32,000 bases of DNA from an uncultured Chloroflexia bacterium (GTDB lineage: Bacteria; Chloroflexota; Ktedonobacteria; Ktedonobacterales; JADMIN01). How positions within the stretch are numbered: position 1 is the first letter of the stretch; each line of letters starts with the position of its first letter. The notes under the pieces were generated by a model. That model had not been told where the DNA came from. It was given only the letters and a program-made list of their open reading frames with translations, and ran no database searches. Below are positions 1 to 27,393 of this stretch, one piece after another. The DNA lies in contig CAVRAI010000003.1 in NCBI GenBank assembly GCA_963718915.1, forward strand, positions 60,001 to 92,000. The letters are read 5' to 3'. The translations under genes were made by a program, and so were the position numbers.

Positions 1-719
1 GTGACGATGGGGCGATCCTTCGGCAGAGCCTCTGCCCTGGCGGCGAGCTTTTTGAGTTTATCCAGCGGCAGATTGCGCGCGCTGGGCAGGTGTCCGGCAG
101 CGTACTCTTTGGCGCTGCGCACGTCGATGATGAGCGGTTGCGGCGAGGCGCTCTGTATCTGCTCTGGCGTCATCAGGTCACAAGTGACGGTATACGGCTC
201 GCCATGCACGCTGGCCAGCCGCGCGTGGATATCGGCGGCGCGCGCCATCTCGCCTCTCCGTTGATAATACTTCTCGATCTCCTGTAATGCCCAGGTGAAG
301 CCGTTGGCCAGAATCTCACCCTCGATAGGGCCAGGAGGATAGTCGCCATAGTAGTTCGGGGTTCGCAGGAACGCCTCGGAGGACCGCTCGACCGCCGTGG
401 TCAGCGCCTCCAGGTCAGTTCGTGTCGCCTGGGCCACCTCATCCCATGTCAGGCTGGCCTGCCTGGCAAGCTCGTCGCGGTTGAGCGCGTCGAAGTCTAC
501 CTCGCGTGGCGGCTCCTCGTCTCGCGCATAAAACCCCATGCGCTCGACCATGTAGCGCATCCAGAAGCCGGTGAGGGCCACCAGCTCTTTGGCCGAATAG
601 TCGTCATCCTTTCTGCCGCCAGCGTCGGCTCGTTCATTCGCGCTCCGGCTCGCCAGAAAATCGTCGAGCGCCTCACCCGTCTGTACAAACGCCACCAGCA
701 GTTCCGCTTTCCTCGCCAT
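1..719 (-). CDS. Partial CDS (3' end lies beyond window start): ClbS/DfsB-like (DUF1706-type) helical N-terminal domain fused to a rhodanese-like C-terminal domain
   Basis: Absent from the supplied ORF track because it has no stop inside the window. Reverse-strand ATG at 719-717 lies 5 nt after GGGAGG (rc of 725-730). My translation MARKAELLVAFVQTGEALDDFL...FWMRYMVERMGFY...NYYGDYPPGPIEGEILANGFTWALQEIEKYY... stays open to base 1. It ends ...PLIIDVRSAKEYAAGHLPSARNLPLDKL...PKDRPIVT, a typical first half of a rhodanese domain. The + ORFs 1..264 and 90..287 are antisense shadows. Confidence 0.6.
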   Translation of the reverse strand, partial: MARKAELLVAFVQTGEALDDFLASRSANERADAGGRKDDDYSAKELVALTGFWMRYMVERMGFYARDEEPPREVDFDALNRDELARQASLTWDEVAQATRTDLEALTTAVERSSEAFLRTPNYYGDYPPGPIEGEILANGFTWALQEIEKYYQRRGEMARAADIHARLASVHGEPYTVTCDLMTPEQIQSASPQPLIIDVRSAKEYAAGHLPSARNLPLDKLKKLAARAEALPKDRPIV

Positions 720-887
720 ACATACCTCCCATCAAACCAGTCTATCCGTTCGAGCTATCATCAGTGTACAGCGGCCAAGCAGACATCTCCTGTCATATTT
801 GGCCGCCGCCCTGGTACATACCAATCACTCCTGTGCTAACATGCTTGTGCGGAAAAGCGTCTCCCAAGTCTTCCAAGGATATCTGAC

Positions 888-2006
888 ATGAGCAGCAACT
901 ACGGCAGCTACGAGGCCCGCATTGGCGCGCTGGCCAGCGGCGAGAAGATTGACCTGCGCAGCGACACCGTGACCCATCCCTCGCCCAACATGCGCGAGGC
1001 GATGTATCGCGCGGAGGTCGGCGACGATGTCTATGGCGAGGATCCGACCGTCAACCAGCTGGAAGAACTGGCGGCGGCGATGTTGGGCAAAGAGGCGGGT
1101 CTCTTCGTCGTCTCAGGCACGATGGGCAACGCTGTCGCGATGCTGACCCACTGCCGCCGGGGCGACGAGATCATCATGGGCGACCGCGCGCACACCTATC
1201 TCTACGAGGTCGGCGGCCCGGCCCGGCTGAATGGCTCGGCCACGCGCCCGGTGCCGACGCTGGCGGATGGCACGCTCGACCGCGAGCGGCTGGCGCGCGC
1301 CTTTCAGGGCGACGACATCCACGAGGCGCGCACGGGGCTGCTCTGCCTGGAAGATACGCACAATATGGTTGGCGGGCGAGTGCTCTCGCCGGAGACACTT
1401 CGCGAGCTGGCGGCTCCCGCGCGGGCACGTAACCTGCCGGTGCATATGGATGGCGCGCGTGTCTTCAACGCTGCTGTGGCGCTGGGCATCCCGGTGAGCG
1501 CGCTGGCGGCGGAGGTGGATAGCGTGCAATTCTGCCTCTCGAAGGGGCTCAGCGCGCCGGTTGGATCGATGGTGGTTGGGTCGCGCGCTTTTATCGACGA
1601 GGGTCGGCGCGTTCGCAAGCTGCTCGGCGGCGGCATGCGCCAGGCGGGCGTCATCGCGGCGGCGGGCGTCGTTGCGCTGAACGAGATGGTCGAGCGGTTG
1701 GCCGAGGACCATGTCAACGCGAAGAAGCTGGCCAACGGGTTGGCGGCGATTCCGGGCATCACCATCGCGCCAGAGACCATCGAGACGAACATCCTCTTCT
1801 TTGGCGTGCGCGGCGAGGATGGCCAGGCGGGCGATGTGACGCCACTGGTGACGGCGGCGGCGCAGGCGGGTGTGCTGCTCTCCGGCGGCGACGATGGCCG
1901 CATCCGCGCGGTGACGCACTACGGCATCTCCGAGGCGGATATTGAGCGCTCGCTCGCGGTGCTGGCCGAGGCGATGGAAGGATTGCAAGCGCCAGTCGGA
2001 GCGTAG
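888..2006 (+). CDS. ltaE: Low-specificity L-threonine aldolase (PLP-dependent)
   Basis: 372-aa ORF. DLRSDTVTHPSPNMREAM, GDDVYGEDPTVNQLEE, SGTMGN, HMDGARVFNA, FCLSKGLSAPVGS (PLP-lysine motif) and GGGMRQAG run co-linear with E. coli LtaE as I recall it. Long antisense ORFs (1113..1988 and others) are Arg/Ala-rich GC shadows. Confidence 0.88.
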   Translation: MSSNYGSYEARIGALASGEKIDLRSDTVTHPSPNMREAMYRAEVGDDVYGEDPTVNQLEELAAAMLGKEAGLFVVSGTMGNAVAMLTHCRRGDEIIMGDRAHTYLYEVGGPARLNGSATRPVPTLADGTLDRERLARAFQGDDIHEARTGLLCLEDTHNMVGGRVLSPETLRELAAPARARNLPVHMDGARVFNAAVALGIPVSALAAEVDSVQFCLSKGLSAPVGSMVVGSRAFIDEGRRVRKLLGGGMRQAGVIAAAGVVALNEMVERLAEDHVNAKKLANGLAAIPGITIAPETIETNILFFGVRGEDGQAGDVTPLVTAAAQAGVLLSGGDDGRIRAVTHYGISEADIERSLAVLAEAMEGLQAPVGA

Positions 2007-2020
2007 AAGGTATCACCATG

Positions 2021-2155
2021 GCTGATACCAATTCCGGCTGGGTTGTTGTATTTGTGGAGCGTGCCGGAGCCTAAAGGCCCCGGCGAATGGGCCAGAGCGG
2101 GATGGAAATTCGCCGTAGCGTTCACGCTACGGCCTGCCTTCGTATGACAACAGTC
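2021..2155. repeat. GC-rich palindromic intergenic repeat, copy 1 (family shared with 11652..11760)
   Basis: gctgataccaattccggctgggttgttgtatttgtggagcg matches 11652-11692 in direct orientation. The core ccggagcctaaaggccccggcgaat...gaaattcgccgtagcgttcacgctacgg (2064-2133) matches the reverse complement of 11697-11756. It contains hairpins cggcgaat/attcgccg and ccgtagcg-ttca-cgctacgg, and the outer ends ggttgttgta / tatgacaacag are inverted. Confidence 0.55.
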
Positions 2156-2309
2156 CAATCGGATGTAGTATTATCAGTCCGCCATTCATGCCGTGAAGGC
2201 GGTTCAGACCTTACCGTGCTCAGATTCAGAGCATGACAAACGCGCCGGACGACGTGAATGTCATCCAGCGCGCGAGTATCGCCAAGAATGCGACGAGTAG
2301 AGGCTTCGC

Positions 2310-2813
2310 CTAGTAGGCTGGCTGCACTGGGCCGCCCGACCACTTCTCAGCCAGGTTGCCGACGATGGGCAGCTTGGTGTACTTGCCGGTAAACCCAGAG
2401 ACCATGCCCCAGATCACCAGGCCCAGGAAGCCAATCGCGCCAACGAAGTAGAGGCAGCTTAGCAGGCAGCCAATCAGGCCACCACCAGTGGCAAGAAGGC
2501 CCGTACTTCCTGCGGCGGAGTCGGCCGCGGTGCTACCAACGAGAATCACACCCTGGATGATGAAGAGGACGATGAAGAAGACCACGTACGCGGCGCCCAA
2601 CAGGATCGACTGCATCGCGTGGAACTTCACGAAGCGGTTGTTCTTCTCGATGAGGAAGAAGATCAACGGCAGGATTGGCGAGAAGAAATAGCCCAGACCC
2701 GCCGCGATATGCGCCTCCATCCCCATCGAGGTTGGACCCCACTTGGCTCCGGCGCTCTGTGCCTGCATCGGTGGCTGCATCGGCGGCTGCCCATAAGGTG
2801 GCTGATCACCCAT
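2310..2813 (-). CDS. DUF4870-family small membrane protein with Pro/Gln-rich N-terminus
   Basis: 167-aa ORF. AHIAAGLGYFFSPILPLIFFLIEKNNRFVKFHAMQSILLG plus further hydrophobic helices fit the DUF4870 pattern. The N-terminus MGDQPPYGQPPMQPPMQ is low complexity. Confidence 0.7.
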   Translation of the reverse strand: MGDQPPYGQPPMQPPMQAQSAGAKWGPTSMGMEAHIAAGLGYFFSPILPLIFFLIEKNNRFVKFHAMQSILLGAAYVVFFIVLFIIQGVILVGSTAADSAAGSTGLLATGGGLIGCLLSCLYFVGAIGFLGLVIWGMVSGFTGKYTKLPIVGNLAEKWSGGPVQPAY

Positions 2814-3343
2814 GTGATGTGTTCCCTTCCTAGCGGAAATATCTACTCCGCTACGCTAAAACAAGCCATCAAGAGTGGCCATGACCGAACGCAAACACAG
2901 GCCGAAAGTGAGAAAATGGACGAATGCGGCTCGCAAGAGACGTTGGCCGGTGCGTCCACCTCGACTGGAGGTCTGGTCTGGCCAGCAAAGACATACCAGT
3001 GAACCTGGTGTGCCTAGAGTGACATCGCTCCCGACCAAAACCGGGAGCTTCCTGGGGTCGTGCCCCACGCCATGATGCCTCAGGGCGAGAGCCTAAACTC
3101 ACAAGCAGTGTAACTGATGTTTAAGTTCTTGTCTACTGTGTGTTTTCCACAACCGCCCTACGAATCCGCGTTTCGACAACCGACCTGGTATTGAGCGCGC
3201 ATCGTTCAAAGGGCACGAACATTTTGGGGGTTCGCAGATGGCGCCCGCGTGTCACTGGATGCCCTGCCATTTGGGCTAGTCCGCTGCCTGCGCCACGCGA
3301 CGTGGCGTCATTCGCGCCATTCGCGCGCGGGGTCGCTATGGCT

Positions 3344-3349
3344 TATAAT
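3344..3349 (+). promoter_or_regulatory. Candidate -10 hexamer (TATAAT) upstream of the thiolase gene
   Basis: A perfect TATAAT in a GC-rich background about 95 nt upstream of the ATG at 3445. The 11-mer ttataatgaac (3343-3353) recurs identically at 15056-15066. No convincing -35 was found. Confidence 0.3.
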
Positions 3350-3444
3350 GAACGGTGCAGTCTTGTGATACATCATCCGTAATACCATACACCCGGAGAC
3401 GCACCCATTCGCTGGCTCCGGATGCGCAAGAAGGAGCCATCGTT

Positions 3445-4632
3445 ATGAGCGACAGGGATCCCGTTCTGGTCAGCGCGGTACGTACCCCCACGGGTCGTTT
3501 TCTCGGCGGACTCGCCAGCCTTCAGGCCACCGAGCTTGGCGCGCGGGCGATTCGCGCGGCCATCGAACGCGCGGGCAACTTCCCGGTGGATGAAATAGAC
3601 GAAGTCATCATGGGCAACGTCGTCACCGCTGGCGAGGGGCAGGCTCCCGCGCGGCAGGCGGGTATTGGCGGCGGCGTTCCCGTGGATATTCCCGCCGTCA
3701 CCGTCAACAAGGTCTGCGGCTCGGGCCTCAAAGCGGTGATGCTCGCCGCCCAGGCCATCAAAGCGGGCGACGGCAACCTCTATATCGCGGGCGGCATGGA
3801 AAGCATGAGCAACGCGCCCTATCTGCTGCCGCAGGGCCGCACCGGCTACCGGATGGGCAACGGCGAGGTCGTGGACGCGGTCGTCAACGACGGGCTGTGG
3901 TGCGCCTTCGAGCATATCCACATGGGCGAAGAGGCGGAGATCATCGCCGACAAGTTCGACATCTCGCGTGAGGCGCAGGATCGGCTCGCCTACGAGAGCC
4001 ACATGAAGGCCCAGGCAGCCACCGAGGCCGGGCGCTTCGCCGACGAGATCGTGCCCATCGAGATTGCCGACAGGAAGGGCAGTTTCACCGTGGATCGCGA
4101 CGAGCCGATTCGCCCCGATACCACGCTGGCGGCGCTTGGCAAACTTGGCCCGGCGTTCCGCAAGCCAGGCGGCACTGTCACAGCGGGCAACGCGCCCGGC
4201 CTGAGCGACGGCGCATCCGCGACGGTGGTTGCCAGCGAGGAATACGCCCGCGCGCACGATCTGCCGATTCTGGCGCGCATCACCGGATACGCCGCGGCGG
4301 CCATCGAGCCGAAGTACATCTTCGCCTGCCCGCCACGCGCCGTCCATCGTCTGCTGGAGCGCACCGGCCAGAAGATGAGCGACTTCGACCTGATCGAGGT
4401 CAACGAGGCCTTCGCCGCGCAGGTGCTGGCCAACGGCAAAGAGCTGGAATGGGACTGGGCGCGTGTCAATCCCAACGGCGGCGCGATTGCCCTCGGCCAT
4501 CCGATTGGGTCGAGCGGCTCGCGCGTGCTGACGACGCTGGTGCATGAGCTACGGCGGCGTGGCGGCGGGCGCGGACTGGCGACGCTCTGCCTGGGCGGCG
4601 GTGGCGCGGTCGCGATGTCGGTCGAGGTGTAG
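3445..4632 (+). CDS. Acetyl-CoA C-acetyltransferase (thiolase II)
   Basis: Track ORF 3355..4632. I prefer the ATG at 3445 (MSDRDPVLVSAVRTPTGRF) because AAGGAG lies at 3431-3436 and thiolases begin this way. Motifs: VNKVCGSGLKAV (active-site Cys), NEAFAAQ, NPNGGAIALGHPIGSSG, CLGGGGAVAM. Confidence 0.92.
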   Translation: MSDRDPVLVSAVRTPTGRFLGGLASLQATELGARAIRAAIERAGNFPVDEIDEVIMGNVVTAGEGQAPARQAGIGGGVPVDIPAVTVNKVCGSGLKAVMLAAQAIKAGDGNLYIAGGMESMSNAPYLLPQGRTGYRMGNGEVVDAVVNDGLWCAFEHIHMGEEAEIIADKFDISREAQDRLAYESHMKAQAATEAGRFADEIVPIEIADRKGSFTVDRDEPIRPDTTLAALGKLGPAFRKPGGTVTAGNAPGLSDGASATVVASEEYARAHDLPILARITGYAAAAIEPKYIFACPPRAVHRLLERTGQKMSDFDLIEVNEAFAAQVLANGKELEWDWARVNPNGGAIALGHPIGSSGSRVLTTLVHELRRRGGGRGLATLCLGGGGAVAMSVEV

Positions 4633-4691
4633 GGGCTATAATACCGTTTTGCACAATAGGAGGTGCACGCCATACTGGCTGGCGGCTGAAG

Positions 4692-4819
4692 CCGCGCCTA
4701 GGGGCTCCGCCGCAAAGGCCGCCTGCGCGGCCTCCAGAACATGTGTCTATGTCTGTCTCTGTCTCTGGAGCCTGCGCAGGCAGGCTTCGCGGCGGAGCGC
4801 AGCGGAGCCCTTAGCCGCG
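4692..4819. repeat. Long imperfect inverted repeat (about 45-bp arms) with a TGTCT-rich loop, in the thiolase-mutase spacer
   Basis: The rc of left arm 4692-4736 (ccgcgcctaggggctccgccgcaaaggccgcctgcgcggcctccag) aligns with right arm 4765-4819 (ctggagcctgcgcaggcaggcttcgcggcggagc[gcagcggagc]ccttagccgcg). Loop 4737-4764 is aacatgtgtctatgtctgtctctgtct. The inner perfect hairpin is ggccgc-ctgc-gcggcc at 4717-4732. Confidence 0.55.
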
Positions 4820-4935
4820 TGTTCACGCGCCAGGGCTGTCCCGACGGGCGTTTACGCCCTTCTGTAGTCTCTACCCCGGCCTTTCAAGGCCGGGATGGTA
4901 CATCGAATTGCCTCAACGAGGAGGGCGAGATCGAG

Positions 4936-6702
<1,767 letters not shown>

Positions 6703-16532: not shown

Positions 16533-17838
16533 GACGCAATCGTATTTGCTGACAACATCCGGCCCGGCGCTGACGAGCTTTGACGCCTACGCGCAGCAGG
16601 GCGGATTCACCGGACTTCGCCAGGCGCTGACGAATATGACGCCAGCGCAGGTACTGGGCGAGTTGCGTACCGCTGGCCTGCGCGGACGCGGCGGCGCTGG
16701 CGTGCTGACGGCGGAGAAGCTCAAGCTGGTGGCTCAGGCGGTGGCCGACGAGAAATATCTTGTCTGCAACGCCTACGATGCCGATATGCGATCTGCGGCG
16801 GCGAGCAGCCTGCTGGAACGCAACCCCTTCCTCGTCATCGAGGGCGTCGCGCTGGCCGCCTATGCCATCGGCGCCACCGAGGCCTACCTCTACGTCCGCA
16901 GCAGCCGCACCGCCGCCGCCGAGAGTATTCGCGCGGCGCTCACCAGCGCCCAGGAGCGCAATGCGCTGGGGCGGGGCATCTTTGGCTCGCAGACCGACCT
17001 GAATATCACGCTGGTCGGGGTCGAGCGCGGCTTCATGGCAGGCGAGGAATCGTCCCTGCTCGAAATCATCAAGGGTCGCCCGATGAAGGCGCAGCAGCGT
17101 CCGCCGTATCCGACCGAGTACGGGTTGCAGGGCCAGCCCACCGTCGTGCAGAACGTCGAGACGCTGGCGAATCTGCCGGTGATTGTAGCGCGCGGCGGCG
17201 ACGCCTTCCGTAAGCTGGGCACCGAGGGCAGCCCTGGCACGAAGCTGCTGACGGTTATCTGGCCAGGCTCGCCACAGGGGGTCATCGTCGAAGCTCCCTT
17301 TGGCACGAAGATTCGCGATGTGCTGGCGAAGGCTGGCGCGCCGGTCAATGAGAGCACGACACGCGCGGTGGTCGTCGGCGGCGGCGAGGGTGGCGCATTG
17401 CCGCTCAGCCTGCTGGATACGCCCTACGACTATGAGCCACTGGAAGAGGTCGGCGTCATCGTCGGCTCTAGCATCATCGAGTTGCTCCCCGCGGACACCT
17501 GCATGGTGCGCTGGGCCACTGAGCGCTCGAACACGCTGGCCCGCGAGTCCTGTGGCAAGTGCGTGCCGTGTCGGGTGGGCGTCAAGCGCATCGGCGGCAC
17601 GCTCGAAGGCATCATCAGCAGCCTGGGCACGCAAGACGATCTGGCGCTGCTGACCGAGTTCGCGCAGTATGTGCCCGATGGCTCGCTCTGTGGTTTCGGC
17701 GTCAACGCCGTTAAGCCGCTGACGACGGCGATGAAATACTTCGCCGACGACTTCACCGCTCATCTCGATGGCACATGCCCGACTGGCGTCTGCGAGCCGG
17801 TGCGCGCGCATCGCTACGCGACCAAGCATGTGCTTTAG
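16525..17838 (+). CDS. NuoF-like (51-kDa family) subunit with retained N3 [4Fe-4S] motif but divergent FMN/NADH-binding motifs
   Basis: Track ORF 16438..17838. I prefer the GTG at 16525 (GGAGGG at 16513-18, overlapping the upstream stop as GTGCCTGA); the alternative is ATG 16495. Motifs: GLRGRGGAG, YLVCNA, IEGVALAAYAIGA, AGEESSLLEII, PPYPTEYGL.GQPTVVQNVETLANLP, GTKLLTV, ESCGKCVPCRVG...SLCGFG. Confidence 0.85.
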   Translation: MPETQSYLLTTSGPALTSFDAYAQQGGFTGLRQALTNMTPAQVLGELRTAGLRGRGGAGVLTAEKLKLVAQAVADEKYLVCNAYDADMRSAAASSLLERNPFLVIEGVALAAYAIGATEAYLYVRSSRTAAAESIRAALTSAQERNALGRGIFGSQTDLNITLVGVERGFMAGEESSLLEIIKGRPMKAQQRPPYPTEYGLQGQPTVVQNVETLANLPVIVARGGDAFRKLGTEGSPGTKLLTVIWPGSPQGVIVEAPFGTKIRDVLAKAGAPVNESTTRAVVVGGGEGGALPLSLLDTPYDYEPLEEVGVIVGSSIIELLPADTCMVRWATERSNTLARESCGKCVPCRVGVKRIGGTLEGIISSLGTQDDLALLTEFAQYVPDGSLCGFGVNAVKPLTTAMKYFADDFTAHLDGTCPTGVCEPVRAHRYATKHVL

Positions 17839-17870
17839 GCATCTTGAGGCAATCTGGGAAGAGGCATTCT

Positions 17871-20276
17871 ATGGCAGTCACGATTCGTGAAGATTCCGCC
17901 GCAACGCCAGGCGGGCAGCCGTTCGAACGGAACGACCATGGCCAGCCATCCTTCACGCTGACCATCGATGGCCGCCCGATGCGCGCCTACGAGGGGCAGA
18001 CTATTCTCAGCGTTGCGGTGGATAACGGGATTCTCGATATTCCGAATCTCTGTAACGATGAGAAACTGGAACCCACCTCGGCCTGCCGCATGTGTCTGGT
18101 GGAGATCGAAGGAGCGGAACGCCCGCTGCCCTCGTGCAATACACCCGCCGCGCCGGGGATGGTGGTGCGCACGAAGTCGGACCGGCTACAGAACATCCGC
18201 CGCACCAACCTGGAGATGATGCTCTCCGACCACAACGCCTATTGCCAGCCACCGTGTCAGGTCGGCTGCCCGACGCATATCGATATTCCGGGCTACCTGG
18301 AACTGATCGCGCAGGGGCAGAATCGCGAGGCGGCGCGGCTGGTGAAGGAAGTGTTGCCCTTCCCCTACATCCTCGGCCTGACCTGTCCGGCGCCCTGCCA
18401 GGATGTCTGCCGCCGCGGGCTGGTGGACGAGGAGATCGCCATCTGCCGCATGCATGGCTATGCCGCCGAACAGTGCATGGACGACCCGCCAACGCCGTGG
18501 GTACAGGAAGCCACCACCGGCAAGAAGGTCGCCGTCGTCGGCGCGGGGCCGTGTGGGCTGACCGCCGCCTACTATCTGGCGCTCAAGGGCCACTACTGCA
18601 AGGTCTATGACATGATGCCCCAGTCGGGCGGCATGCTGCGCTATGGCATCCCGGAGTATCGGCTGGAGAAGGATCAGATTGATCGTGAGTTCGAGGGCGT
18701 CTGGAAGCTCGGCGTCGACGTGCAGTACAACGTCAAGCTGGGCGAAGACTTCACGATTGACGATCTCTTCAACGAGGGCTTCGACGCGGTCTACCTCGCC
18801 ATCGGCGCGTGGACCTCGAACGAGTTGGGCCTCGACGGCCAGGATTTGCCCGGCGTCATCAACGCCATCGCGTACTTGCAGGATAAGACGCGCGGCCTGA
18901 CGCAGCCGGTGAACGACACCAAAGAGGTGATCGTGCTGGGCGGCGGCTTCACGACATTCGACTGCACACGCACCTCGCTCCGCCTGGGTGCGAAGGTGCA
19001 CACGGTCTATCGCCGCGGACGTGGTGAGATGACGGCCACCTTCGAGGAGGTCGAGGATGGCGAGAGCGAGGGCACTGACCTGCAACTCTTCGCGTCGGCG
19101 ACGAAGGTGATCCACGACGGCACGAAGGTCACTGGCCTGGAGTTCCAGCGGATGCAACTGGGCGAGCCAGACGCCACGGGCCGCCGCCGCCCGGTGCCGA
19201 TCCCCGGCAGCGAATACCAGATTAGCTGCGATACGGTGATCCCAGCCTACGGGCAGAAGCCCGATAAAGCGGTGCTGCCGGAGAGTAGTGGCGTCATCTG
19301 GACGAAACATCAGACCATCGAGACCGACCCGTACAACTTCATGACGGCGCGCAAGGGCGTCTTCGCGGGCGGCGACGCAGTGATCGGCGCCTCGACGATT
19401 ATCGAGTGCGTGGCGCAGGGCAAGCTGGCCTCCCGTTCGATTGACGCCTATCTGCGTAGCGAGGATATGGCGGTCGTCTCGAAGACCATCGAGGCGGAGG
19501 AGCGCAAGCCGGACCTCTTCGACATCGTGCCCTACAAGCCGGTCGAGCCGAAGGTCAAGATGCCGATGCTGCCCTATGACGAGCGGGATCGCAACTTCCG
19601 GCTGATCGAGATGGGTTACACCCAGGAGCAGGCCGAGCGCGAGGCGGGCCGCTGCTTGCAGTGCGCGTGCCCGGCGGCGGGGCAGTGCGATCTGCAAAAA
19701 TACAGCATCGAGTACAACCTCGAAAACAACCGCTTCCATGATGGCGAGCCAAGCGACTACCACGACTACGAGTTCGATCTGTCGCATAGCTTCATCCTGC
19801 GCGACCCGAACAAGTGCATCAACTGCACCCAGTGCGTGCGCGTCTGCCACGACGTGATCGGCCCGAACTGCTATGGCATGTTTGGCCACGGCTTCGATAC
19901 GATTGTTTCGACGCCGTTCAACGCCTCGCTGCACGAGACGGACTGTGTTTCGTGTGGCGCGTGCGTGCAGGTCTGCCCGACCGGCTCGCTGATGATGGCG
20001 GAGCGCGAGCTGGTGCGCTGGGACTTCGCGCTGGATCGCTGCATCTTCTGCGGCGACTGCGTGGAGGTCTGCCCGCACGGCGCGCTCGGCGAGACGCCCA
20101 ACTTCGAGCTATCGTTCTACAACCGCTTTGGCCGCGATATCTCGATGCCGATGCAGGATGTGGCGCGCGCGCCGTCGTTCCTGGTGCGCCAGCCCGTGCC
20201 GCGCAACGAGGACGAGCGCCCCAATGGACTGAACCCGCTGGTGCGTCCGCTGCCCGCGCGCCAGATTCGCGAATAG
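17871..20276 (+). CDS. Multidomain Fe-S flavoprotein: NuoG/HydA-type N-terminal [2Fe-2S] domain, GltD-type (glutamate synthase small-subunit-like) FAD/NAD(P)H module, NuoG-type 2x[4Fe-4S] region, NuoI C-terminal half
   Basis: Track ORF 17775..20276; the ATG at 17871 follows GGGAAGAGG. Domains in order:
- [2Fe-2S]: LTIDGRPMRAYEGQTILSVA...NLCNDEKLEPTSACRMCLVEIEG...SCNT
- GltD-like: HNAYCQPPCQVGCPTHIDIPGYLELI...LTCPAPCQDVC, VAVVGAGPCGLTAAYYL, GGMLRYGIPEYRLEKD, VFAGGDAV
- 4Fe-4S region: RCLQCACPAAGQCDLQ, CINCTQCVRVC, CVSCGACVQVCPTGSL
- tail: WDFALDRCIFCGDCVEVCPHGALGETPNFELSFY, resembling NuoI [34 protein letters not shown]. Confidence 0.85.
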   Translation: MAVTIREDSAATPGGQPFERNDHGQPSFTLTIDGRPMRAYEGQTILSVAVDNGILDIPNLCNDEKLEPTSACRMCLVEIEGAERPLPSCNTPAAPGMVVRTKSDRLQNIRRTNLEMMLSDHNAYCQPPCQVGCPTHIDIPGYLELIAQGQNREAARLVKEVLPFPYILGLTCPAPCQDVCRRGLVDEEIAICRMHGYAAEQCMDDPPTPWVQEATTGKKVAVVGAGPCGLTAAYYLALKGHYCKVYDMMPQSGGMLRYGIPEYRLEKDQIDREFEGVWKLGVDVQYNVKLGEDFTIDDLFNEGFDAVYLAIGAWTSNELGLDGQDLPGVINAIAYLQDKTRGLTQPVNDTKEVIVLGGGFTTFDCTRTSLRLGAKVHTVYRRGRGEMTATFEEVEDGESEGTDLQLFASATKVIHDGTKVTGLEFQRMQLGEPDATGRRRPVPIPGSEYQISCDTVIPAYGQKPDKAVLPESSGVIWTKHQTIETDPYNFMTARKGVFAGGDAVIGASTIIECVAQGKLASRSIDAYLRSEDMAVVSKTIEAEERKPDLFDIVPYKPVEPKVKMPMLPYDERDRNFRLIEMGYTQEQAEREAGRCLQCACPAAGQCDLQKYSIEYNLENNRFHDGEPSDYHDYEFDLSHSFILRDPNKCINCTQCVRVCHDVIGPNCYGMFGHGFDTIVSTPFNASLHETDCVSCGACVQVCPTGSLMMAERELVRWDFALDRCIFCGDCVEVCPHGALGETPNFELSFYNRFGRDISMPMQDVARAPSFLVRQPVPRNEDERPNGLNPLVRPLPARQIRE

Positions 20277-20307
20277 CCTGTAGCGCAATAGAATAGGCAT
20301 AGCAAGA

Positions 20308-20340
20308 GGGTGATCGGTGGAATGCCGGTCACCTTTTTTG
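20308..20340 (+). terminator. Rho-independent terminator of the nuo-like operon (also left copy of the islet-flanking repeat)
   Basis: gtgatcgg (20310-17) - tggaatg - ccggtcac (20325-32) forms 8 bp with one G.U pair. It is followed by TTTTTT (20334-39), about 30 nt after the stop at 20274-76. Confidence 0.7.
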
Positions 20341-20355
20341 TGCCTTATTGCCACT

Positions 20356-20369
20356 AGAAAATTCGTTCT
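20356..20369. promoter_or_regulatory. Candidate LexA (Cheo-type) SOS box upstream of the dinD homologue
   Basis: AGAAAattcGTTCT matches the Gram-positive/Dehalococcoides-type AGAAC-N4-GTTCT palindrome at 9 of 10 positions. It lies 8 nt upstream of a TATACT -10 candidate (20378-83) and about 50 nt before the start codon. Confidence 0.4.
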
Positions 20370-20418
20370 TCGCCATGTATACTGATAGCAGGCAAACGTT
20401 CGCGAGATGGAGGGATAC

Positions 20419-21237
20419 ATGAGTCCGTTCGAGGCGATCCGGCACAGCGATGAGGATGGGCAGGAGTTTTGGTCAGCGCGCGAGCTGGCAGTTATTCTTG
20501 ACTACTCCAACTGGCGCAACTTCGTGAAGGTTATAGGCAAGGCGCGTGAAGCCTGCGAGAACAGTGGTTATGCAGCTTCAGACCATTTCGTCGAAGCCGA
20601 CCAAATGGTCACTCTAGGCAGTGGGGCACAACGTCAGGTTGCAGATTTCTCCTTGTCGCGCTACGCCTGTTATCTCATCGTGCAGAATGCCGACCCCGAA
20701 AAACCCATCGTCGCGCTGGGGCAGACCTACTTTGCCGCGCAGACCCGTCAGGCAGAACTGGCCGAAGACGCCGAGCGTGTCTACCTGCGCGATCAGATGA
20801 GCGAGCACAACAAGACGCTGGCCGCCTCAGCATACGAAGCCGGAGTGGTTACTCGAAGCGACTTCGCCATCTTCACCGACCACGGCTATATGGGCCTCTA
20901 CAGTGGTGAGCGAGCACGCGACATCGCCGCACGCAAGGGATTGAAGCGCAGGCAGCCTATCCTCGACTGGATGAACACTGAGGAACTGGCTGATAATCTC
21001 TTCCGGCAGGTGCAGGCCGAGGCACGCATCCGTCGTGAAGGAGCCGCCAGCAAAGAGGAGGCCAACCGCATCCACCATCAGGTCGGACAGCAGGTGCGTC
21101 GCTTTATCATCGAGGAGTTAGAGGGAACGCCGCCGGAATTTCTACCGACGCCGAGCGAGAGCGTGCAGACGGTGCGCGCCCGCGAACAGCAGCGGATCCA
21201 GGCGGAACGACAGCCGTCACTCTTCCCCCACGGATGA
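20419..21237 (+). CDS. dinD: DNA-damage-inducible protein D homologue (DinD; BRO-N-like N-terminal domain)
   Basis: Track ORF 20407..21237; the ATG at 20419 follows GGAGGG (20409-14). SPFEAIRHSDEDGQEFWSARELAVILDYSNWRNFVKVIGKAREACENSGYAASDHFVE...LGSGAQRQVADFSLSRYACYLIVQNADPEKP...GQTYFAAQTR is co-linear with E. coli DinD as I recall it (QPFEEIKH...GQEFWSARELAPLLEY.DWRNF...). Confidence 0.85.
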   Translation: MSPFEAIRHSDEDGQEFWSARELAVILDYSNWRNFVKVIGKAREACENSGYAASDHFVEADQMVTLGSGAQRQVADFSLSRYACYLIVQNADPEKPIVALGQTYFAAQTRQAELAEDAERVYLRDQMSEHNKTLAASAYEAGVVTRSDFAIFTDHGYMGLYSGERARDIAARKGLKRRQPILDWMNTEELADNLFRQVQAEARIRREGAASKEEANRIHHQVGQQVRRFIIEELEGTPPEFLPTPSESVQTVRAREQQRIQAERQPSLFPHG

Positions 21238-21247
21238 CGCATAGCCG

Positions 21248-21302
21248 TTGACAGGGTGGTCAGCACGTGCCAAAATCTAGGTAGATAATTACAATTACCT
21301 AG
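21248..21302 (+). promoter_or_regulatory. abiE promoter (TTGACA-17-CAAAAT) with adjacent perfect 7-bp inverted repeat, a likely AbiEi operator
   Basis: TTGACA at 21248-53, a 17-nt spacer, then CAAAAT at 21271-76. ctaggta (21277-83) and tacctag (21296-302) flank AT-rich gataattacaat. AbiEi antitoxins are known to autorepress via inverted repeats in their promoter. Confidence 0.5.
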
Positions 21303-21319
21303 AGGTCAGAACGGATTCC

Positions 21320-21946
21320 ATGACAACGAAACCCGAAGAGCTATCTAACGGGGATCGCGCGCGTCATCTCATTCAGGAGGTGGGCGTGCTGCGTCCGCGC
21401 GACCTGGCCGCGCATGGCATCCCTCCACGCTATGCGTCTCGCCTCGCGCGGGAAGGGCTGCTAGAGCGGGCGGATCGCGGCCTCTATGCTGTGACAGATG
21501 GTGCTATCCATGAGCATCAGACGCTGGTTGAGGTGAGCCGACGGATGCCTCACGCCGTGATCTGCTTGCTTTCTGCACTACGCTTCCATGACCTGACAAC
21601 TCAAGCGCCATTCGAGGTGTGGGTAATGGTAGATGTTCACGCCTATGTGCCGCGCACGACACAACTACCAGTGCGTGTCGTTTATGCCTCGGGCAAAGCG
21701 CTTACCGAAGGTGTCGAGCAACATCTCATTATGGGCGTGCTAGTGCGTGTGACCACTCCGGCAAAGACAGTCGTGGACTGCTTCAAATACCGCTCGAAAG
21801 TTGGGCTTGATGTAGCCCTGGAGGCGCTACGTGAGACCTGGCGCGAGCGACGCGCGACGATGGACGAGTTGTGGCGCTACGCCCAAGTCTGTCGTGTCGC
21901 ACAGGTTATGCGCCCGTACCTCGAATCGCTGGAGACGCTCTCATGA
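21320..21946 (+). CDS. abiEi: Type IV toxin-antitoxin system AbiEi-family antitoxin (wHTH transcriptional autoregulator)
   Basis: 208 aa. ARHLIQEVGVLRPRDLAAHGIPPRYASRLAREGLLERADRGLYAV is the AbiEi_4-type N-terminal wHTH. The stop overlaps the next start as ATGA (21943-46). Confidence 0.8.
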   Translation: MTTKPEELSNGDRARHLIQEVGVLRPRDLAAHGIPPRYASRLAREGLLERADRGLYAVTDGAIHEHQTLVEVSRRMPHAVICLLSALRFHDLTTQAPFEVWVMVDVHAYVPRTTQLPVRVVYASGKALTEGVEQHLIMGVLVRVTTPAKTVVDCFKYRSKVGLDVALEALRETWRERRATMDELWRYAQVCRVAQVMRPYLESLETLS

Positions 21947-22869
21947 GCGATTCCACTGGTGGCAAAAAACCTCGTGCAATACCAACACCCAGGGATCTGC
22001 CAGCATCCATTCGTGGCAGGCTGAAGAACCAGGCGCGGGCGCGTGGTGAGGACATGCTCTATGTACTATCACGCTATGCGCTCGAGCGATTGCTCTTTCG
22101 CCTCGGACGCTCCTCATATGCTGACCAGTTCGTGGTAAAGGGCGCGCTTCTTTTCTCGCTCTGGAACGAGCACTCCCACCGCCCAACACGTGACCTGGAT
22201 CTGCTCGGCTTTGGTTCTGAGGACGCCAACCGCATCCAGCTGATCTTCACCGATCTGTGCACGCTGCCCATCAGTGAGGCAGATGGTCTGATATTCCAGC
22301 AGGAATCCATACAGGTGACGCCTATTCGCGAGACGCAGGAGTATGGAGGACTGCGCGTAGCAATGTGGGCATTGCTTGGGCAAACTCGCATTCGCGTGCA
22401 GGTGGACATCGGCTTTGGTGATGTCACCACACGTGCGCGTCTATCCGCCTGAGACAGTTGTCGCGGAGAAGTACGAGGCGCTCGTGCGGTTGGGGGTAAT
22501 CAACAGCCGGGTGAAAGACTTTTATGATCTGTGGACATTGGCCAGCGAACGCGCCTTCACTGGCACTATCCTCGCGACGGCGATCAGTGCGACGTTCACC
22601 CGACGTGATACGCCACTCCCGACGGCTACGCCACTCGCGCTCACTGACGACTTCATCGCTGACCCGGCAAAGCTACAACTCTGGCGCGCTTTCGTGAGCC
22701 GCAACAAACTCGATCCTGCTGCGCCTTCTCTCAACTGCTCCGCGCTTTCCTCTTGCCGCCCACACAATCACGGCTCTCTGGAGAACCATTCGATCAGCAA
22801 TGGGCGCCAGGTGGTCCATGGCAACGACCGCCCCTGGCTGCAAGTGATTCCTCCGCCGATGCAAAGTAG
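21943..22869 (+). pseudogene. abiEii: AbiEii/AbiGii-family nucleotidyltransferase toxin, disrupted (internal deletion/frameshift near 22425 and 1-nt deletion near 22725)
   Basis: Frame 1 (21943-22452): MSDSTGG...LERLLFRLGRS.YADQFVVKGALLFSLW...RPTRDLDLLGFG...QVDIGFGDVTT, then junk and a stop. Frame 2 (about 22425-22725): HVRVYPPETVVAEKYEALVRLGVINSRVKDFYDLW...LWRAFVSRNKLDPAAP. Frame 1 again (about 22726-22869): FSQLLRAFLLPPTQSRLSGEPFDQQWAPGGPWQ...*. About 15-20 residues normally between GFGD and the (R)xYPxET segment are missing. Confidence 0.75.
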
Positions 22870-22888
22870 GCAGACTCATATGTGACGA

Positions 22889-22920
22889 GTGATCGGTTGT
22901 ATGCCAGTCACCCTCTTTTC
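22889..22920 (+). terminator. Degenerate copy of the 20310-20339 terminator hairpin (right copy of the islet-flanking repeat)
   Basis: gtgatcggttgtatgccagtcacc (22889-22912) matches 20310-20333 at 21 of 24 positions and is followed by ctctttt. The stem has one mismatch more than the left copy. Confidence 0.45.
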
Positions 22921-22939
22921 GCGGCCAGTATACGGCATC

Positions 22940-22948
22940 TGCTACAAT
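22940..22948 (+). promoter_or_regulatory. Candidate extended -10 (TGcTACAAT) for the ABC ATPase gene
   Basis: tgctacaat lies at 22940-22948, about 80 nt upstream of the ATG at 23029. Confidence 0.35.
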
Positions 22949-23028
22949 AAGGCTGGCCGTAAAGCTGAGATGCCGTGGGGCGTCATATCCAGCGGGCGAG
23001 CGTCATCGGAGCGAGGAGTAGCGCAGGC

Positions 23029-24009
23029 ATGCAGTGGGGAACACCGCAGGGGCAGAGCGACAAAGATCGAGCGAACGGGCCCTATCAGCCATACCAGCCG
23101 TACGAGCCATACCAGCGGCCACCCGAGGATATTGATACCGCGCCAGTGATGCCCGCTATGCCTGCTATGCCATCGATGCCTGCCGCTCTAGCTGCGCCAG
23201 TCACGTCTTCAGGGCCAAAGCCTCTGCTTATAGCGCAGGATGTGGTCAAGCAGTTCAAGGTTGGTGGCGGCGGCACAGTCACCGCGCTACGGCACGTCAC
23301 GCTCACCGTTGGTGAGGGGCGTATCGTCGCCATTCGCGGACGCTCCGGCGCGGGCAAAACGACCCTGCTCAACATCATCGCTGGGCTGGATTCTCCCACC
23401 AGCGGACATGTGGCGCTCTTCGGACGCGACCTCGCCACACTCAACGAACGACGACGAACGGAACTGCGGCGGCACGATCTCGGCTTCGTCTTTCAGGCGG
23501 CCCACCTGAACCCCGTTCTGACCGCGCGCGAGAACGTCGAGGTGCCACTACGGCTGGCGCGCACCGCCCGCCGGGAACGCGAGGGCCGCTCGCACGAGGC
23601 GCTGGCGCTGGTGGGGCTGGCCGAACGTGAGAAGCACCGCCCGCCCGAGCTTTCTGGTGGCGAACAGCAGCGGGTGGCCATCGCGCGGGCGCTGGTCCAT
23701 GCGCCACGGCTTGTGCTGGCCGACGAGCCGACCGGCAACCTCGATAGCCATACCGGCCTCGCCATCCTCGACCTGATGCGCCGCGTCGCCCATCGCGCGG
23801 GCATCACCTTCATCGTCACCACACACGATCCGCAGGCGTCGCAGATGGCCGACGAGGTCTACGACATCAGCGACGGCGTGCTGTCACCAGGGCAACGAGA
23901 TCCCCCCCCTAATGCGCCGACGACTACTGATATGGCTGATCGAACCGCTCGCGCGACACCACCTCGCCAAGCGGTTTGCGTTTCTTCTTGCCCGCGCCCG
24001 CCGCTTTGA
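23029..24009 (+). CDS. ABC transporter ATP-binding protein (MacB/LolD-type ATPase) with Pro-rich repetitive N-terminal extension
   Basis: Track ORF 22975..24009; the ATG at 23029 follows GAGGAG (23013-18). Motifs: Walker A GRSGAGKTTLLN, Q-loop FVFQ, signature LSGGEQQRVAIARAL, Walker B LVLADEPTGNLD, H-loop TTHD. The N-terminus carries PYQPYQPYEPYQ and PAMPAMPSMPA. The C-terminal ~45 aa past DGVL are low complexity and overlap the convergent gene. Confidence 0.85.
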   Translation: MQWGTPQGQSDKDRANGPYQPYQPYEPYQRPPEDIDTAPVMPAMPAMPSMPAALAAPVTSSGPKPLLIAQDVVKQFKVGGGGTVTALRHVTLTVGEGRIVAIRGRSGAGKTTLLNIIAGLDSPTSGHVALFGRDLATLNERRRTELRRHDLGFVFQAAHLNPVLTARENVEVPLRLARTARREREGRSHEALALVGLAEREKHRPPELSGGEQQRVAIARALVHAPRLVLADEPTGNLDSHTGLAILDLMRRVAHRAGITFIVTTHDPQASQMADEVYDISDGVLSPGQRDPPPNAPTTTDMADRTARATPPRQAVCVSSCPRPPL

Positions 24010-25107: not shown

Positions 25108-25204
25108 AGCATCTGCTCTCATTCGCTCTACATACGCTAAAGTCGCTTATCCGCACAAAGCTACACAAACGGAAGCAAGCCACTCAAACAATAGCATATC
25201 CTGT

Positions 25205-25362
25205 CGAATTGTTCATGCGCATCTGGAGAGCGTGGGCGTGCGAGCAGGGGCTTACCCTTCCTCGCGCTCGGCGCAGGGATAGCGAACAGTCGCGCCCGCG
25301 CCTTCTACGCCCGCCACGGCTACCAGGAGGAAGACTTACGGCTGGCGAAGGCGCTGCGATGA
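25205..25362 (+). pseudogene. 5'-truncated, frameshifted remnant of a GNAT acetyltransferase
   Basis: ...MRIWRAWACEQGLTL (frame 0) then, after a +1 shift near 25255-25262, LALGAGIANSRARAFYARHGYQEEDLRLAKALR* (stop 25360-62). This corresponds to only the last ~50 residues of a GNAT fold (N..A..FY.+.G[YF]). Confidence 0.45.
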
Positions 25363-25516
25363 CTTTACCTCGACCTGCGACCACCTCAAAGGGAGCGAGC
25401 TATTGGAATGCTCTGATCCCTCTCTCCTGTGGGAGAGACTGCCAGGGGCCAGCTTCGATAGCGGCGTGAGGCAGTCAGACGCGCCTACGCCCCGACGAGC
25501 ATATGCGCGGATTCGC

Positions 25517-26476
25517 TCAGATAAGCATCTCCGCGGTTTGGAGGAACGGCCGGCCCAGCTCCTCGATGCCCAGTTCGAGGCAATACAGGCCGCTGGACAC
25601 CCGTTCGAGGAAGCCCCACTCCCAGATCGCGGTCCCCTCGATGCCGGTCTGAGCGCTCAGCAGCGCGCAGTACCGGCGGGCTAGCGCCGCGGCAGCTTCC
25701 GTGGTTCCCGTAGCGAGGAGCTGCTCGCACCAGTCGCGCAGCACCACCCCCAGGTCGTAGGCGGGGTCGGCGAGGAATCCGACCGGGTCCACGAAGACGA
25801 ATCCCGCCTCCGCTCCCACCCGCGGCGCGAGCACTTGCAGCGCGTTCCACGGATGGGGATCGCCGTGGACCACGACGCAGCGCTCCAAGTCGAACGCGGC
25901 CGCGCGCCGCTCGGCATACCGCAAGGCCTCGTTCACGACCCGCTCCGAACACGGATGGCCCAGGTCCTCCCACAGGCGGCTGACCATGCGGGCGAGTTGC
26001 CCTGCCTTCTCGTCGTCCGGCGTCACCACCAGACCAGCCAGGCGCGGCGCCTGCCACACCTGGCGCAGCATCTGGCATAAGAGCGCGATCTTCTGCTCTG
26101 GCAGCAAGGCGAGCGAGGCCATCGGCGGGCCAAGGGCCTCAAGGAGCATCGCCTCGCGCTCGCGGTCGTAGGCCAGCAGGCGCACATAGCCGTGCCCTTG
26201 CGCGCTGGCGAGCACGCGCAGCTCGTCGGCAAAGCCCACCTCAGGGATCGCGATCTTGAGGATGGCGTCGCCGCCCTCCGCCGTCCGCGCTCGGGCCACA
26301 TACGAGCCGGTTCCGCCCGTGAGCGCCTGACCAACCGTGATCGACCACATGCGTTCCAGGTGCGCGATCACATCTGGAAGCTCGGCAAGCCACCGCTCGC
26401 CCCGTTGCCCGAGGTGCATGACTCGCTGCCGGACTAACCCCGGCACCTGCACCAACCGCCCGTCCGCGTCATCCAT
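25517..26476 (-). CDS. Aminoglycoside/hydroxyurea-resistance-type kinase (APH(6)/StrA-like phosphotransferase)
   Basis: 319 aa. AILKIAIP, LLAYDREREAMLLEAL, VVVHGDPHPWNAL (HGDxHxxN catalytic loop), FVDPVGFLADPAYDLG. Confidence 0.72.
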   Translation of the reverse strand: MDDADGRLVQVPGLVRQRVMHLGQRGERWLAELPDVIAHLERMWSITVGQALTGGTGSYVARARTAEGGDAILKIAIPEVGFADELRVLASAQGHGYVRLLAYDREREAMLLEALGPPMASLALLPEQKIALLCQMLRQVWQAPRLAGLVVTPDDEKAGQLARMVSRLWEDLGHPCSERVVNEALRYAERRAAAFDLERCVVVHGDPHPWNALQVLAPRVGAEAGFVFVDPVGFLADPAYDLGVVLRDWCEQLLATGTTEAAAALARRYCALLSAQTGIEGTAIWEWGFLERVSSGLYCLELGIEELGRPFLQTAEMLI

Positions 26477-26580
26477 GACAGCATCATAGCGTACCCAGCG
26501 GCGCCACTGCCACTGCTAAATCGCTGCAACTTCCTCTGAGATGGTTCCAGATCTTGGCAAACGAAAGCCAAGCGCAGCGC

Positions 26581-27393
26581 TCATCCTCGCTTTGTCCCCA
26601 CCTGTAATGCCCGCAGGAAGTCTACGCCCGCCTGGACGCTCTTGTTTGCCGGGGCGGCGTCCACCGCGTTGAGCAGCGCGCTGGCGACGACCGCGCCCTC
26701 GGCCATCGCGCCAATCTCGGCGACGTGCTCCGGACGCGAGACGCCGAAGCCCACCGCCAGCGGCAGATCGCTGTGGCTGCGGACGCGGGCCAGGAACGCC
26801 GCCAGATGCTCCGGCAGGCGGTCGCGCGCGCCGGTTGTGCCGCTGAGCGAGACGCAGTAGAGGAATCCGCCGGAATCTTTGGACGCCTCGGCCACCTGGG
26901 CCAACCGCTCGTCCGGGCTGGTCGGCGTCACCAGATAAATCAGCGCGATGCCGTATTGGCTGGCAGCCGATTGCAGTGGCTCAGATTCCTCCGGCGGCAG
27001 GTCGGGGACGATCAGGCCGACGATGCCCGCCTGGGCCGCCCGCTCGCAGAAAGACGCGATGCCCGCGCTGAAGATCGGATTGTAGTAGGTCATCAGCAGC
27101 AGCGGCGTCGCGATGCGCGCGTGGATGCGTCCGGCCAGCGCCAGCGCACCCTCCGGGGTCATGCCGCCTTCGAGCGCGTGGTGGCTCGCCGCCTGAATCG
27201 TCGCGCCGTCGGCCATCGGGTCGGAGAACGGCACGCCCAGCTCCAGCAGGTCCGCGCCCGCCTCGCCCAGCGCCACCGCCAGCGCCTCACTGGTCGCGGC
27301 GTCGGGATAGCCCGCCATCACGTAGGGCAGCAGCGCGGTGCGGCCGTCCTCACGCGCGCGGGCGAACGCCGCCGTTATAGCATGTACAGACAT
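26581..27393 (-). CDS. trpA: Tryptophan synthase alpha chain
   Basis: Track ORF 26581..27411; the ATG at 27393 follows GGAAGGA. Motifs: ALLPYVMAGYPD, ADLLELGVPFSDPMADGATIQ, GIVGLIVPDLP, YCVSLSGTTG, VGFGVS. Confidence 0.92.
   Translation of the reverse strand: MSVHAITAAFARAREDGRTALLPYVMAGYPDAATSEALAVALGEAGADLLELGVPFSDPMADGATIQAASHHALEGGMTPEGALALAGRIHARIATPLLLMTYYNPIFSAGIASFCERAAQAGIVGLIVPDLPPEESEPLQSAASQYGIALIYLVTPTSPDERLAQVAEASKDSGGFLYCVSLSGTTGARDRLPEHLAAFLARVRSHSDLPLAVGFGVSRPEHVAEIGAMAEGAVVASALLNAVDAAPANKSVQAGVDFLRALQVGTKRG

Follow-up and report, generated by a model that had tools for sequence, protein, structure and literature searches.

An old dinD-abiE insertion beside a copied terminator hairpin in a soil Chloroflexota genome

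An islet of genes 2.6 kb in size was analysed in the genome of an uncultured Chloroflexia bacterium (assembly GCA_963718915.1, 5.45 Mb, designated G000). The whole stretch of DNA considered, called the window, comprises 32,000 nt and corresponds to C3:60001-92000 of this genome (contig CAVRAI010000003.1). In the window, a complex-I-like operon ends in a terminator, and a short spacer separates this from the promoter of an ABC ATPase gene. The spacer is occupied by a dinD-like gene, the antitoxin gene abiEi and a remnant of the toxin gene abiEii, and the terminator hairpin is present on both sides of these genes. The islet is an insertion of considerable age into a single-copy target; it contains no recombinase genes, its cargo has been turned over, and the right copy of the hairpin is decaying. 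Quite probably, positions 20334-22888 represent an old insertion of accessory defence or addiction genes with a long target duplication of variable length, in which the terminator hairpin was copied and after which the locus was inherited vertically. The hairpin copies and the adjoining flanks are as follows.

20305..20339 (24-mer 20310-20333), plus strand: HP1, left copy of the repeat and intrinsic terminator of the upstream operon, with an extended 13-bp stem
22889..22918 (24-mer 22889-22912), plus strand: HP2, right, decaying copy of the terminator hairpin, with the original tail CTCTTT
17775..20276, plus strand: left flank, last gene of a complex-I-like Fe-S module, encoding an 833-aa NuoG-N::GltD-like::NuoI-C fusion (Pfam, NCBIfam)
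22919..23028, plus strand: original downstream flank with promoter and leader of the ABC gene, conserved across the genus
23029..24009, plus strand: right flank, LolD/MacB-type ABC ATPase gene, starting with ATG at 23029

The left 24-mer (GTGATCGGTGGAATGCCGGTCACC) and the right 24-mer (GTGATCGGTTGTATGCCAGTCACC) are identical at 21 of 24 positions, or at 25 of 30 if the T-rich tail is counted. Positions, identity and the T-rich run agree with an earlier description made from the letters alone (the sequence-only reading). HP1 is a strong terminator with the stem AGAGGGTGATCGG/CCGGTCACCTTTT, a 7-nt loop, a predicted energy of -22.6 kcal/mol and a T6 run. HP2 is weaker (-11.7 kcal/mol); it has a single C-A mismatch, and its tail reads CTCTTTT.

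That an insertion event took place is real, because a related genome retains the empty site. The same-genus loci L041 and L042 came from a scan of metagenome contigs. In L041, one hairpin is followed directly by the ABC ATPase promoter (layout ...AGAGGGTGATCGGTGGAATGCCGGTCACCCTCTTTTCGCGG...TGCTACAAT...ATG(ABC)), the sequence after the stop codon of the 833-aa gene being ...TAA caacactagccgttagca AGAGGGTGATCGGTGGAATGCCGGTCACCCTCTTTTCGCGGGTAGTATACGCCATCTGCTACAAT... up to the ABC start. The C-terminus of the 833-aa protein is 99% identical to that of the window and the ABC protein 91%. L041 corresponds to the left flank of the window including HP1 (24/24), continued directly by what lies behind HP2 there, namely the CTCTTTTCGCGG tail and the extended -10 TGCTACAAT, and the 3' part of HP2 with its flank is colinear with this empty site. 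The single hairpin of L041 has a 13-bp stem, of which the outer 5' half AGAGG survives beside HP1 and the outer 3' half CCTCT beside HP2. Since L041 consists of the left flank, one hairpin and the right flank, positions 20334-22888 plus one hairpin copy constitute the insertion. The ABC gene also directly follows the 833-aa gene in seven other genera of the family, with spacers of 220-460 nt; each of these genera has its own terminator, unrelated in sequence. The sequence-only reading had suggested an insertion at or next to a terminator hairpin with target duplication and had proposed that relatives be searched for an empty site; the suggestion is supported by L041, by the empty spacers of the seven genera and by the restriction of the 24-mer to this locus.

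A third copy of the 24-mer was not detected at up to 4 mismatches in the whole 5.45-Mb genome, and among all 8 genomes of the genus the 24-mer was found at this one locus only. With two copies in the genome and a single locus in the genus, a dispersed hairpin family of the repetitive extragenic palindromic (REP) or bacterial interspersed mosaic element (BIME) type, or a common terminator, was ruled out. The search for further copies had been put forward with the original description, in which such a genome-wide family would have made the two copies coincidental. Shuffling of the window with preservation of dinucleotides gave no chance match at up to 3 mismatches in 100 trials. As an empirical control, the seven other dinD paralogue loci of the same genome were inspected, and none shows a 21/24 direct repeat across +/-5 kb; a general mechanism linked to dinD was ruled out by these loci as well. 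A genome-wide scan of perfect stems for duplicated hairpins returned just the REP-like families of the genome, and the islet hairpin was missed because its stem contains a T-G pair. Several of these families are abundant, represented by AAATTCGCCGTAGCGTTCACGCTACGGCCTGCC, by GGCCACRAAGTCCGCCTGCGCGGACTT together with CGCCACAAAACCCGCCTGCGCGGGTTT, and by CCCCTCTCCTCGCAGGAGAGGGG, the last forming arrays with a period of about 133 nt. Members are located at about 2114, 11698 and 31192 in the window and throughout the genome, for example at C1:481399-488982 of G000, and they are unrelated in sequence to the 24-mer hairpin.

Comparison of the spacer among relatives revealed a variety of contents. The following states were found in the genus, with genomes denoted by G and loci by L.

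G000 (window): dinD and abiE
G005: an open reading frame (ORF) for a 396-aa coiled-coil protein and intact abiE, with a 68-nt dinD remnant and HP2 cut to its 3' half
G001 and L042: HP1 and a degenerate HP2, with a gene for thymidine kinase between them
G004: the entire terminator repeated over 45 nt at 93% identity, the cargo being an ABC-2 transporter pair, a MarR-like gene and an unknown gene
G003: other DNA right after the T-run, the terminator being present without duplication
L041: empty

The locus of G001 was read from two contigs overlapping by 140 nt, the G004 insert from two contig ends without overlap, and G002, G006 and G007 were left out due to missing sequence or contig breaks. 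In G017, which belongs to an eighth genus, the same spacer harbors a HicB/HicA toxin-antitoxin pair (L025, G017:C3:82500-85162), and its own, different terminator is not duplicated. The length of the duplication at this terminator differs between independent events, being 24-30 nt, 45 nt (G004) or none. The spacer downstream of the 833-aa gene is a recurrent insertion hot spot with turnover of cargo. No thymidine kinase gene was detected anywhere in the G000 assembly. Homologues of abiE present elsewhere, in G016 and G022, have unrelated native flanks and no hairpin.

Some of the other inserts were inspected further. The 396-aa ORF of G005 (L015, reverse strand, 3213-4403) matches no Pfam family and gave only faint PADLOC matches to the coiled coils of LmuB and JetC (E about 1e-3 to 1e-4). 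Located behind the conserved promoter of dinD, it takes the place of most of that gene and is followed by the 68-nt remnant. In G003, the sequence upstream of the ABC gene (L019, reverse strand, about 1-5050, G003:C16) contains Rhs/YD-repeat-like ORFs and one SMI1/KNR4-like immunity ORF, as judged by eye. The sequence after HP1 (L018, 1783-9501, G003:C24) contains a gene for a BNR-repeat protein (Pfam) and, again by eye, sigma-factor-like and long regulator-like ORFs. Two accounts fit G003: an insert of very large size, or a rearrangement with the same breakpoint.

No machinery for mobility was apparent. Pfam, PADLOC and NCBIfam scans of the ORFs between 17775 and 24009 detected no recombinase or transposase domain, which bears out the earlier statement that no integrase or transposase lies inside. 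An integrase-mediated genomic island was rejected, since no tyrosine or serine recombinase gene is located within or next to the islet. Terminal inverted repeats are absent from the insert ends, and the duplication of 24-45 nt is variable, not fixed; an insertion sequence, a transposon or a miniature inverted-repeat transposable element was dismissed on these grounds. Integron attC sites are about 57-141 nt long and contain R''/R' GTTRRRY cores, and IntI or an attC array would be expected with them. An integron cassette or attC array was rejected on finding a palindrome of 24-33 nt, no GTTRRRY core and two copies only. The search for a source element was likewise negative: 29 IMG/VR matches to a degenerate hairpin pattern all lie in unrelated, coding-like contexts lacking AbiE and DinD, and plasmids gave only distant matches to the dinD and abiEi genes.

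The insertion is old and inherited, not recent. Between the abiE promoter and the ABC gene, the islets of G000 and G005 have 77% identity, compared with 87% for the downstream ABC block, and the 55 nt after HP1 are common to both islets. HP1 is preserved (24/24) in G000, L041 and L042. HP2 differs at 3 of 24 positions in G000; in G001 and L042 it shows more changes, along with an indel, and in G005 its 5' half is gone. Decay of HP2 is seen in all lineages, so that the right copy is maintained neither as a terminator nor as a recombination site, and its decay argues against a currently used att site. The islet is probably not an active mobile element now. A derived CCAG is present in HP2 of G000, G001, L042 and G005, where HP1 has CCGG; HP2 of G000, G001 and L042 also share 'cga' and 13 of 19 bases upstream. 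From these shared features it appears most likely that HP2 arose once and that the cargo was replaced later. G000 combines the abiE cargo of G005 with a right end as in the thymidine-kinase islets. Homology between the left ends of the thymidine-kinase and abiE islets was too weak to be used. A larger original duplication including the promoter, suggested by some likeness of the stretches that follow HP1 and HP2, was dropped, as it was seen only in a heavily gapped alignment.

The phylogeny of the flanks does not follow the distribution of the islets. A tree of the 2.1-kb downstream flank gave the topology (G000,(G005, L041,(G001, G007))) with support of 98/98, in conflict with the islet distribution. 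In topology tests (approximately unbiased test, p-AU), forcing G000 and G005 together gave 0.02, and grouping all four other genomes of the clade, with L041 placed outside, gave 0.008; the groups were named after the data had been seen, and the spacer state of G007 itself is hidden by contig breaks. Read literally, the tree implies that the empty site of L041 arose secondarily, by precise loss or by replacement of the allele, and is not an untouched ancestor.

Several observations weigh against an inherited long target duplication. The trees rest on about 2 kb each, and that of the upstream 833-aa gene is a polytomy. The empty contig L041 nests among insert-bearing lineages in the downstream-flank tree, which requires a precise loss or an allele replacement, and a precise loss would be easier with a site-specific system. 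The repeat of 24 nt (21/24) or 30 nt (25/30) is at or below the threshold of more than 30 bp used by Furuta et al. (2010), its length is within the size range of integrase att cores, and the 13-7-13 geometry of the hairpin is that of the core site of a tyrosine recombinase.

For the insertion with a copied terminator, the following course can be envisaged. A break across the palindromic terminator, either staggered or induced by its structure, may have been the point at which foreign DNA was joined; alternatively, this DNA may have entered by a single crossover of a circle bearing the terminator. HP1 keeps the upstream context and HP2 keeps the CTCTTTTCGCGG tail and the ABC promoter; therefore, both neighbouring transcription units are intact. 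Selection would favour events sparing the upstream terminator and the downstream promoter. HP1 would still terminate the upstream operon and HP2 would close the islet. The cargo consists of a dinD-like Bro-N protein (PDC-S13), whose promoter contains a LexA-box-like palindrome, and an AbiE type IV pair with an intact antitoxin and a dead toxin. Subsequently, the locus would have been inherited vertically, its cargo swapped by recombination, and the insert lost precisely at least once, either from one hairpin copy to the other or by replacement of the allele.

Alternatively, the hairpin could be the site of a host-encoded tyrosine recombinase acting in trans. The islet would then be an integrase-less cassette bounded by attL (HP1) and attR (HP2), and its excision would have restored attB, seen as the empty site. 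This is unlikely, but a number of features are consistent with it. Inverted arms of 13 nt surround an asymmetric spacer of 7 nt, and the junctions fit attL = B-O-P' and attR = P-O-B', with outer arms that differ (AGAGG vs GACGA; CTCT vs TTTT) and a shared inner 8 bp. The nested position of the empty site L041 among filled ones suggests precise excision, and about 19 nt next to HP2 are common to different cargoes. However, a 13-7-13 geometry is common to all intrinsic terminators, and the hairpin is restricted to one locus. The extent of the duplication varies from 24-30 nt to 45 nt in G004, with none in G003 or G017, and HP2 decays in every lineage. In addition, 2 of the 7 spacer positions are not the same in HP1 and HP2, a difference that would prevent strand exchange, and neither a copy of the site on phage contigs nor a copy of the islet on plasmids was found.

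Integrase-less elements that use host recombinases are known from integrative mobile elements exploiting Xer (IMEX) at dif and from the pdif modules of Acinetobacter plasmids. The islet resembles these in its toxin-antitoxin cargo between copies of a short imperfect palindrome and in the lack of a recombinase gene inside. It differs in being present at one locus, in the variable extent of the repeat and in the decay of the right copy; moreover, pdif sites are inverted, whereas the islet repeats are direct. A bolder version, in which the terminator stem-loop with its 13-nt arms and 7-nt spacer is the attB of a chromosomal recombinase, and integrase-less defence cassettes insert and excise there as a Chloroflexota analogue of IMEX/pdif, is still less probable. 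If it were true, the nested empty site and the shared right ends would be footprints of repeated integration and excision.

It is also rather doubtful that several related cassettes with conserved ends were inserted independently, the thymidine-kinase and dinD-abiE islets having arrived separately at the hairpin. The left junctions do differ, following CACC in G000 and G005 and CACCCTC(TT) in G001 and L042; no remnant of abiE or dinD is present in the thymidine-kinase islets; and G004 shows that the site can be struck independently. On the other hand, the CCAG shared by HP2 of G000, G001, L042 and G005, and the 'cga' and about 13 of 19 upstream bases shared by the first three, point to one origin of HP2. 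With a crossover at the spacer borders, the CCAG arm would be expected to stem from the chromosome, not from the element.

A tandem duplication of the terminator, for instance by slippage, with unrelated DNA inserted between the copies later, belongs to a class listed by Furuta et al. (PMC2853133), and a coincidental or REP-type likeness could be imagined in a genome rich in REP-like hairpins, but all of this is highly improbable: no relative has two adjacent hairpins and no cargo, the 24-mer is not a dispersed family, and the chance expectation is essentially zero from the shuffles and the dinD paralogue loci, by which the chance and REP versions are largely refuted.

An old insertion with target duplication at the terminator fits an already described kind of event. 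Insertions with long target duplication are characterised by unique repeats, one copy of which is present at the empty site and which often span gene ends, with an operational cut-off of more than 30 bp for the target duplication (PMC2853133); the same class was described earlier by Nobusato et al. (2000, Gene 259:99), as cited in PMC2853133. The islet shares with this class a small block of genes without transposase or integrase, direct repeats that correspond to a single copy at the empty site of a relative, the absence of the repeat elsewhere in the genome, its variable length and position at gene ends, and a cargo of the addiction/defence type. In contrast, the cargo here is a toxin-antitoxin pair with a dinD-like gene and not a restriction-modification system, the repeat of 24-30 nt does not exceed 30 bp, as the 45-nt one of G004 at this terminator does, and is precisely an intrinsic-terminator stem-loop, the host is a soil member of the Chloroflexota, and the event is ancient with a decaying right copy. 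Minimal mobile elements, hot spots between conserved genes in Neisseria (as cited in PMC1797815 and PMC3787668), are similar in that one spacer carries different whole-gene cassettes or none depending on the lineage, that mobility genes are missing, and that exchange occurs plausibly by homologous recombination in conserved flanks. The present comparison, however, is between species of a genus and not between strains, and a duplicated terminator is not a defining feature of those elements.

The locus provides a well-documented case outside the usual model organisms of how a small defence or toxin-antitoxin cargo settles without a mobility gene. As the cargo is placed behind a copied terminator, the transcription units on both sides are left undisturbed. 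A single genus offers a natural series of alleles, some filled, some with other contents and some empty, in which the origin and the decay of insertions with long target duplication could be followed.

Within the islet, the following features were defined.

20340..20406, plus strand: left insert end with the dinD promoter TAGAAA-17-TATACT (20355-20383), homologous in G005 to about 20386
20407..21237, plus strand: dinD-like gene for a Bro-N domain protein, DNA damage-inducible protein D (NF008573, PADLOC PDC-S13)
21248..21302, plus strand: abiE promoter TTGACA-17-CAAAAT (21248-21276) and palindrome CTAGGTA-N12-TACCTAG (21277-21302)
21320..21946, plus strand: abiEi, intact gene for the antitoxin/repressor of 208 aa (PF13338; PADLOC AbiEi, 2.9e-81)
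21943..22866, plus strand: abiEii toxin pseudogene in three frame segments (21943-22431, 22418-22744, 22714-22866)
22870..22888, plus strand: right-end insert segment, 13/19 shared with the thymidine-kinase islets of G001 and L042, not with G005

The identification of dinD, abiEi and an abiEii remnant between the hairpin copies in the sequence-only reading was borne out by Pfam, NCBIfam and PADLOC matches. The DinD equivalog NF008573 was matched with 349 bits (cut-off 242) and PDC-S13, a candidate defence family of PADLOC, with 1.7e-101; AbiEii was recognised by PF08843 and by PADLOC AbiEii (1.9e-54). The dinD-like genes are a multi-copy family with about 8 copies or fragments in the genome (G000 C3:438908-439750, C15:190490-191326, C1:419186-419947, C3:749449-750150, C6:9102-9827 and fragments); abiE is single-copy. 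A LexA-box-like palindrome, AGAAAattcGTTCT, is located at 20356-20369 inside the dinD promoter. Its counterpart in G005, GAAAACAATGTTCT, is conserved only in part, and the -10 TATACT is kept.

The two abiE genes form a bicistronic pair. As in the AbiE type IV toxin-antitoxin system, the gene of the winged-helix protein AbiEi overlaps the start of that for the nucleotidyltransferase AbiEii by 4 nt, and an operator-like palindrome follows the promoter, whose perfect TTGACA had been pointed out previously and is indeed present. CTAGGTA-N12-TACCTAG is likely the AbiEi operator. In G005, the left arm CTAGGTA is the same, the right arm is CACCTAG instead of TACCTAG (one base), and the inner 12 nt vary. 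AbiEi is 85% identical in amino acid sequence to its G005 counterpart. Unlike in the AbiE system, the toxin gene of the islet is a pseudogene; it has two frameshifts and has lost about 13 codons relative to the orthologue of G005, which is intact. AbiE is not functional as a pair, because the reading frame of the toxin is broken.

Windowed GC and codon usage, proposed earlier as a check, gave a GC content of 58.2% for the islet and 61.5% for the genome; among 2.55-kb windows, the islet ranks at the 12th percentile. At third codon positions, GC amounts to 56-69% in the islet and 71-84% in the flanking genes. The AT-richness of the islet is real but mild.

The flanking genes are well conserved. 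The 833-aa gene is conserved in all relatives, with 80-97% identity across 40 relatives. The ABC promoter has its extended -10 TGCTACAAT at 22940-22948, and the start of the ABC gene was corrected to the ATG at 23029. At 23079-23114 of the window, a 9-nt periodic repeat encodes a run of (P-Y-Q/E) motifs in an N-terminal extension of the ABC ATPase, which is conserved in the orthologues of the genus. A second variable spot was observed at 25110-26585 of the window, about 2.1 kb downstream of the ABC start: colinearity of G000, G005, G001, G007 and L041 ends at about 25107 and resumes at about 26585, the sequences in between being different.

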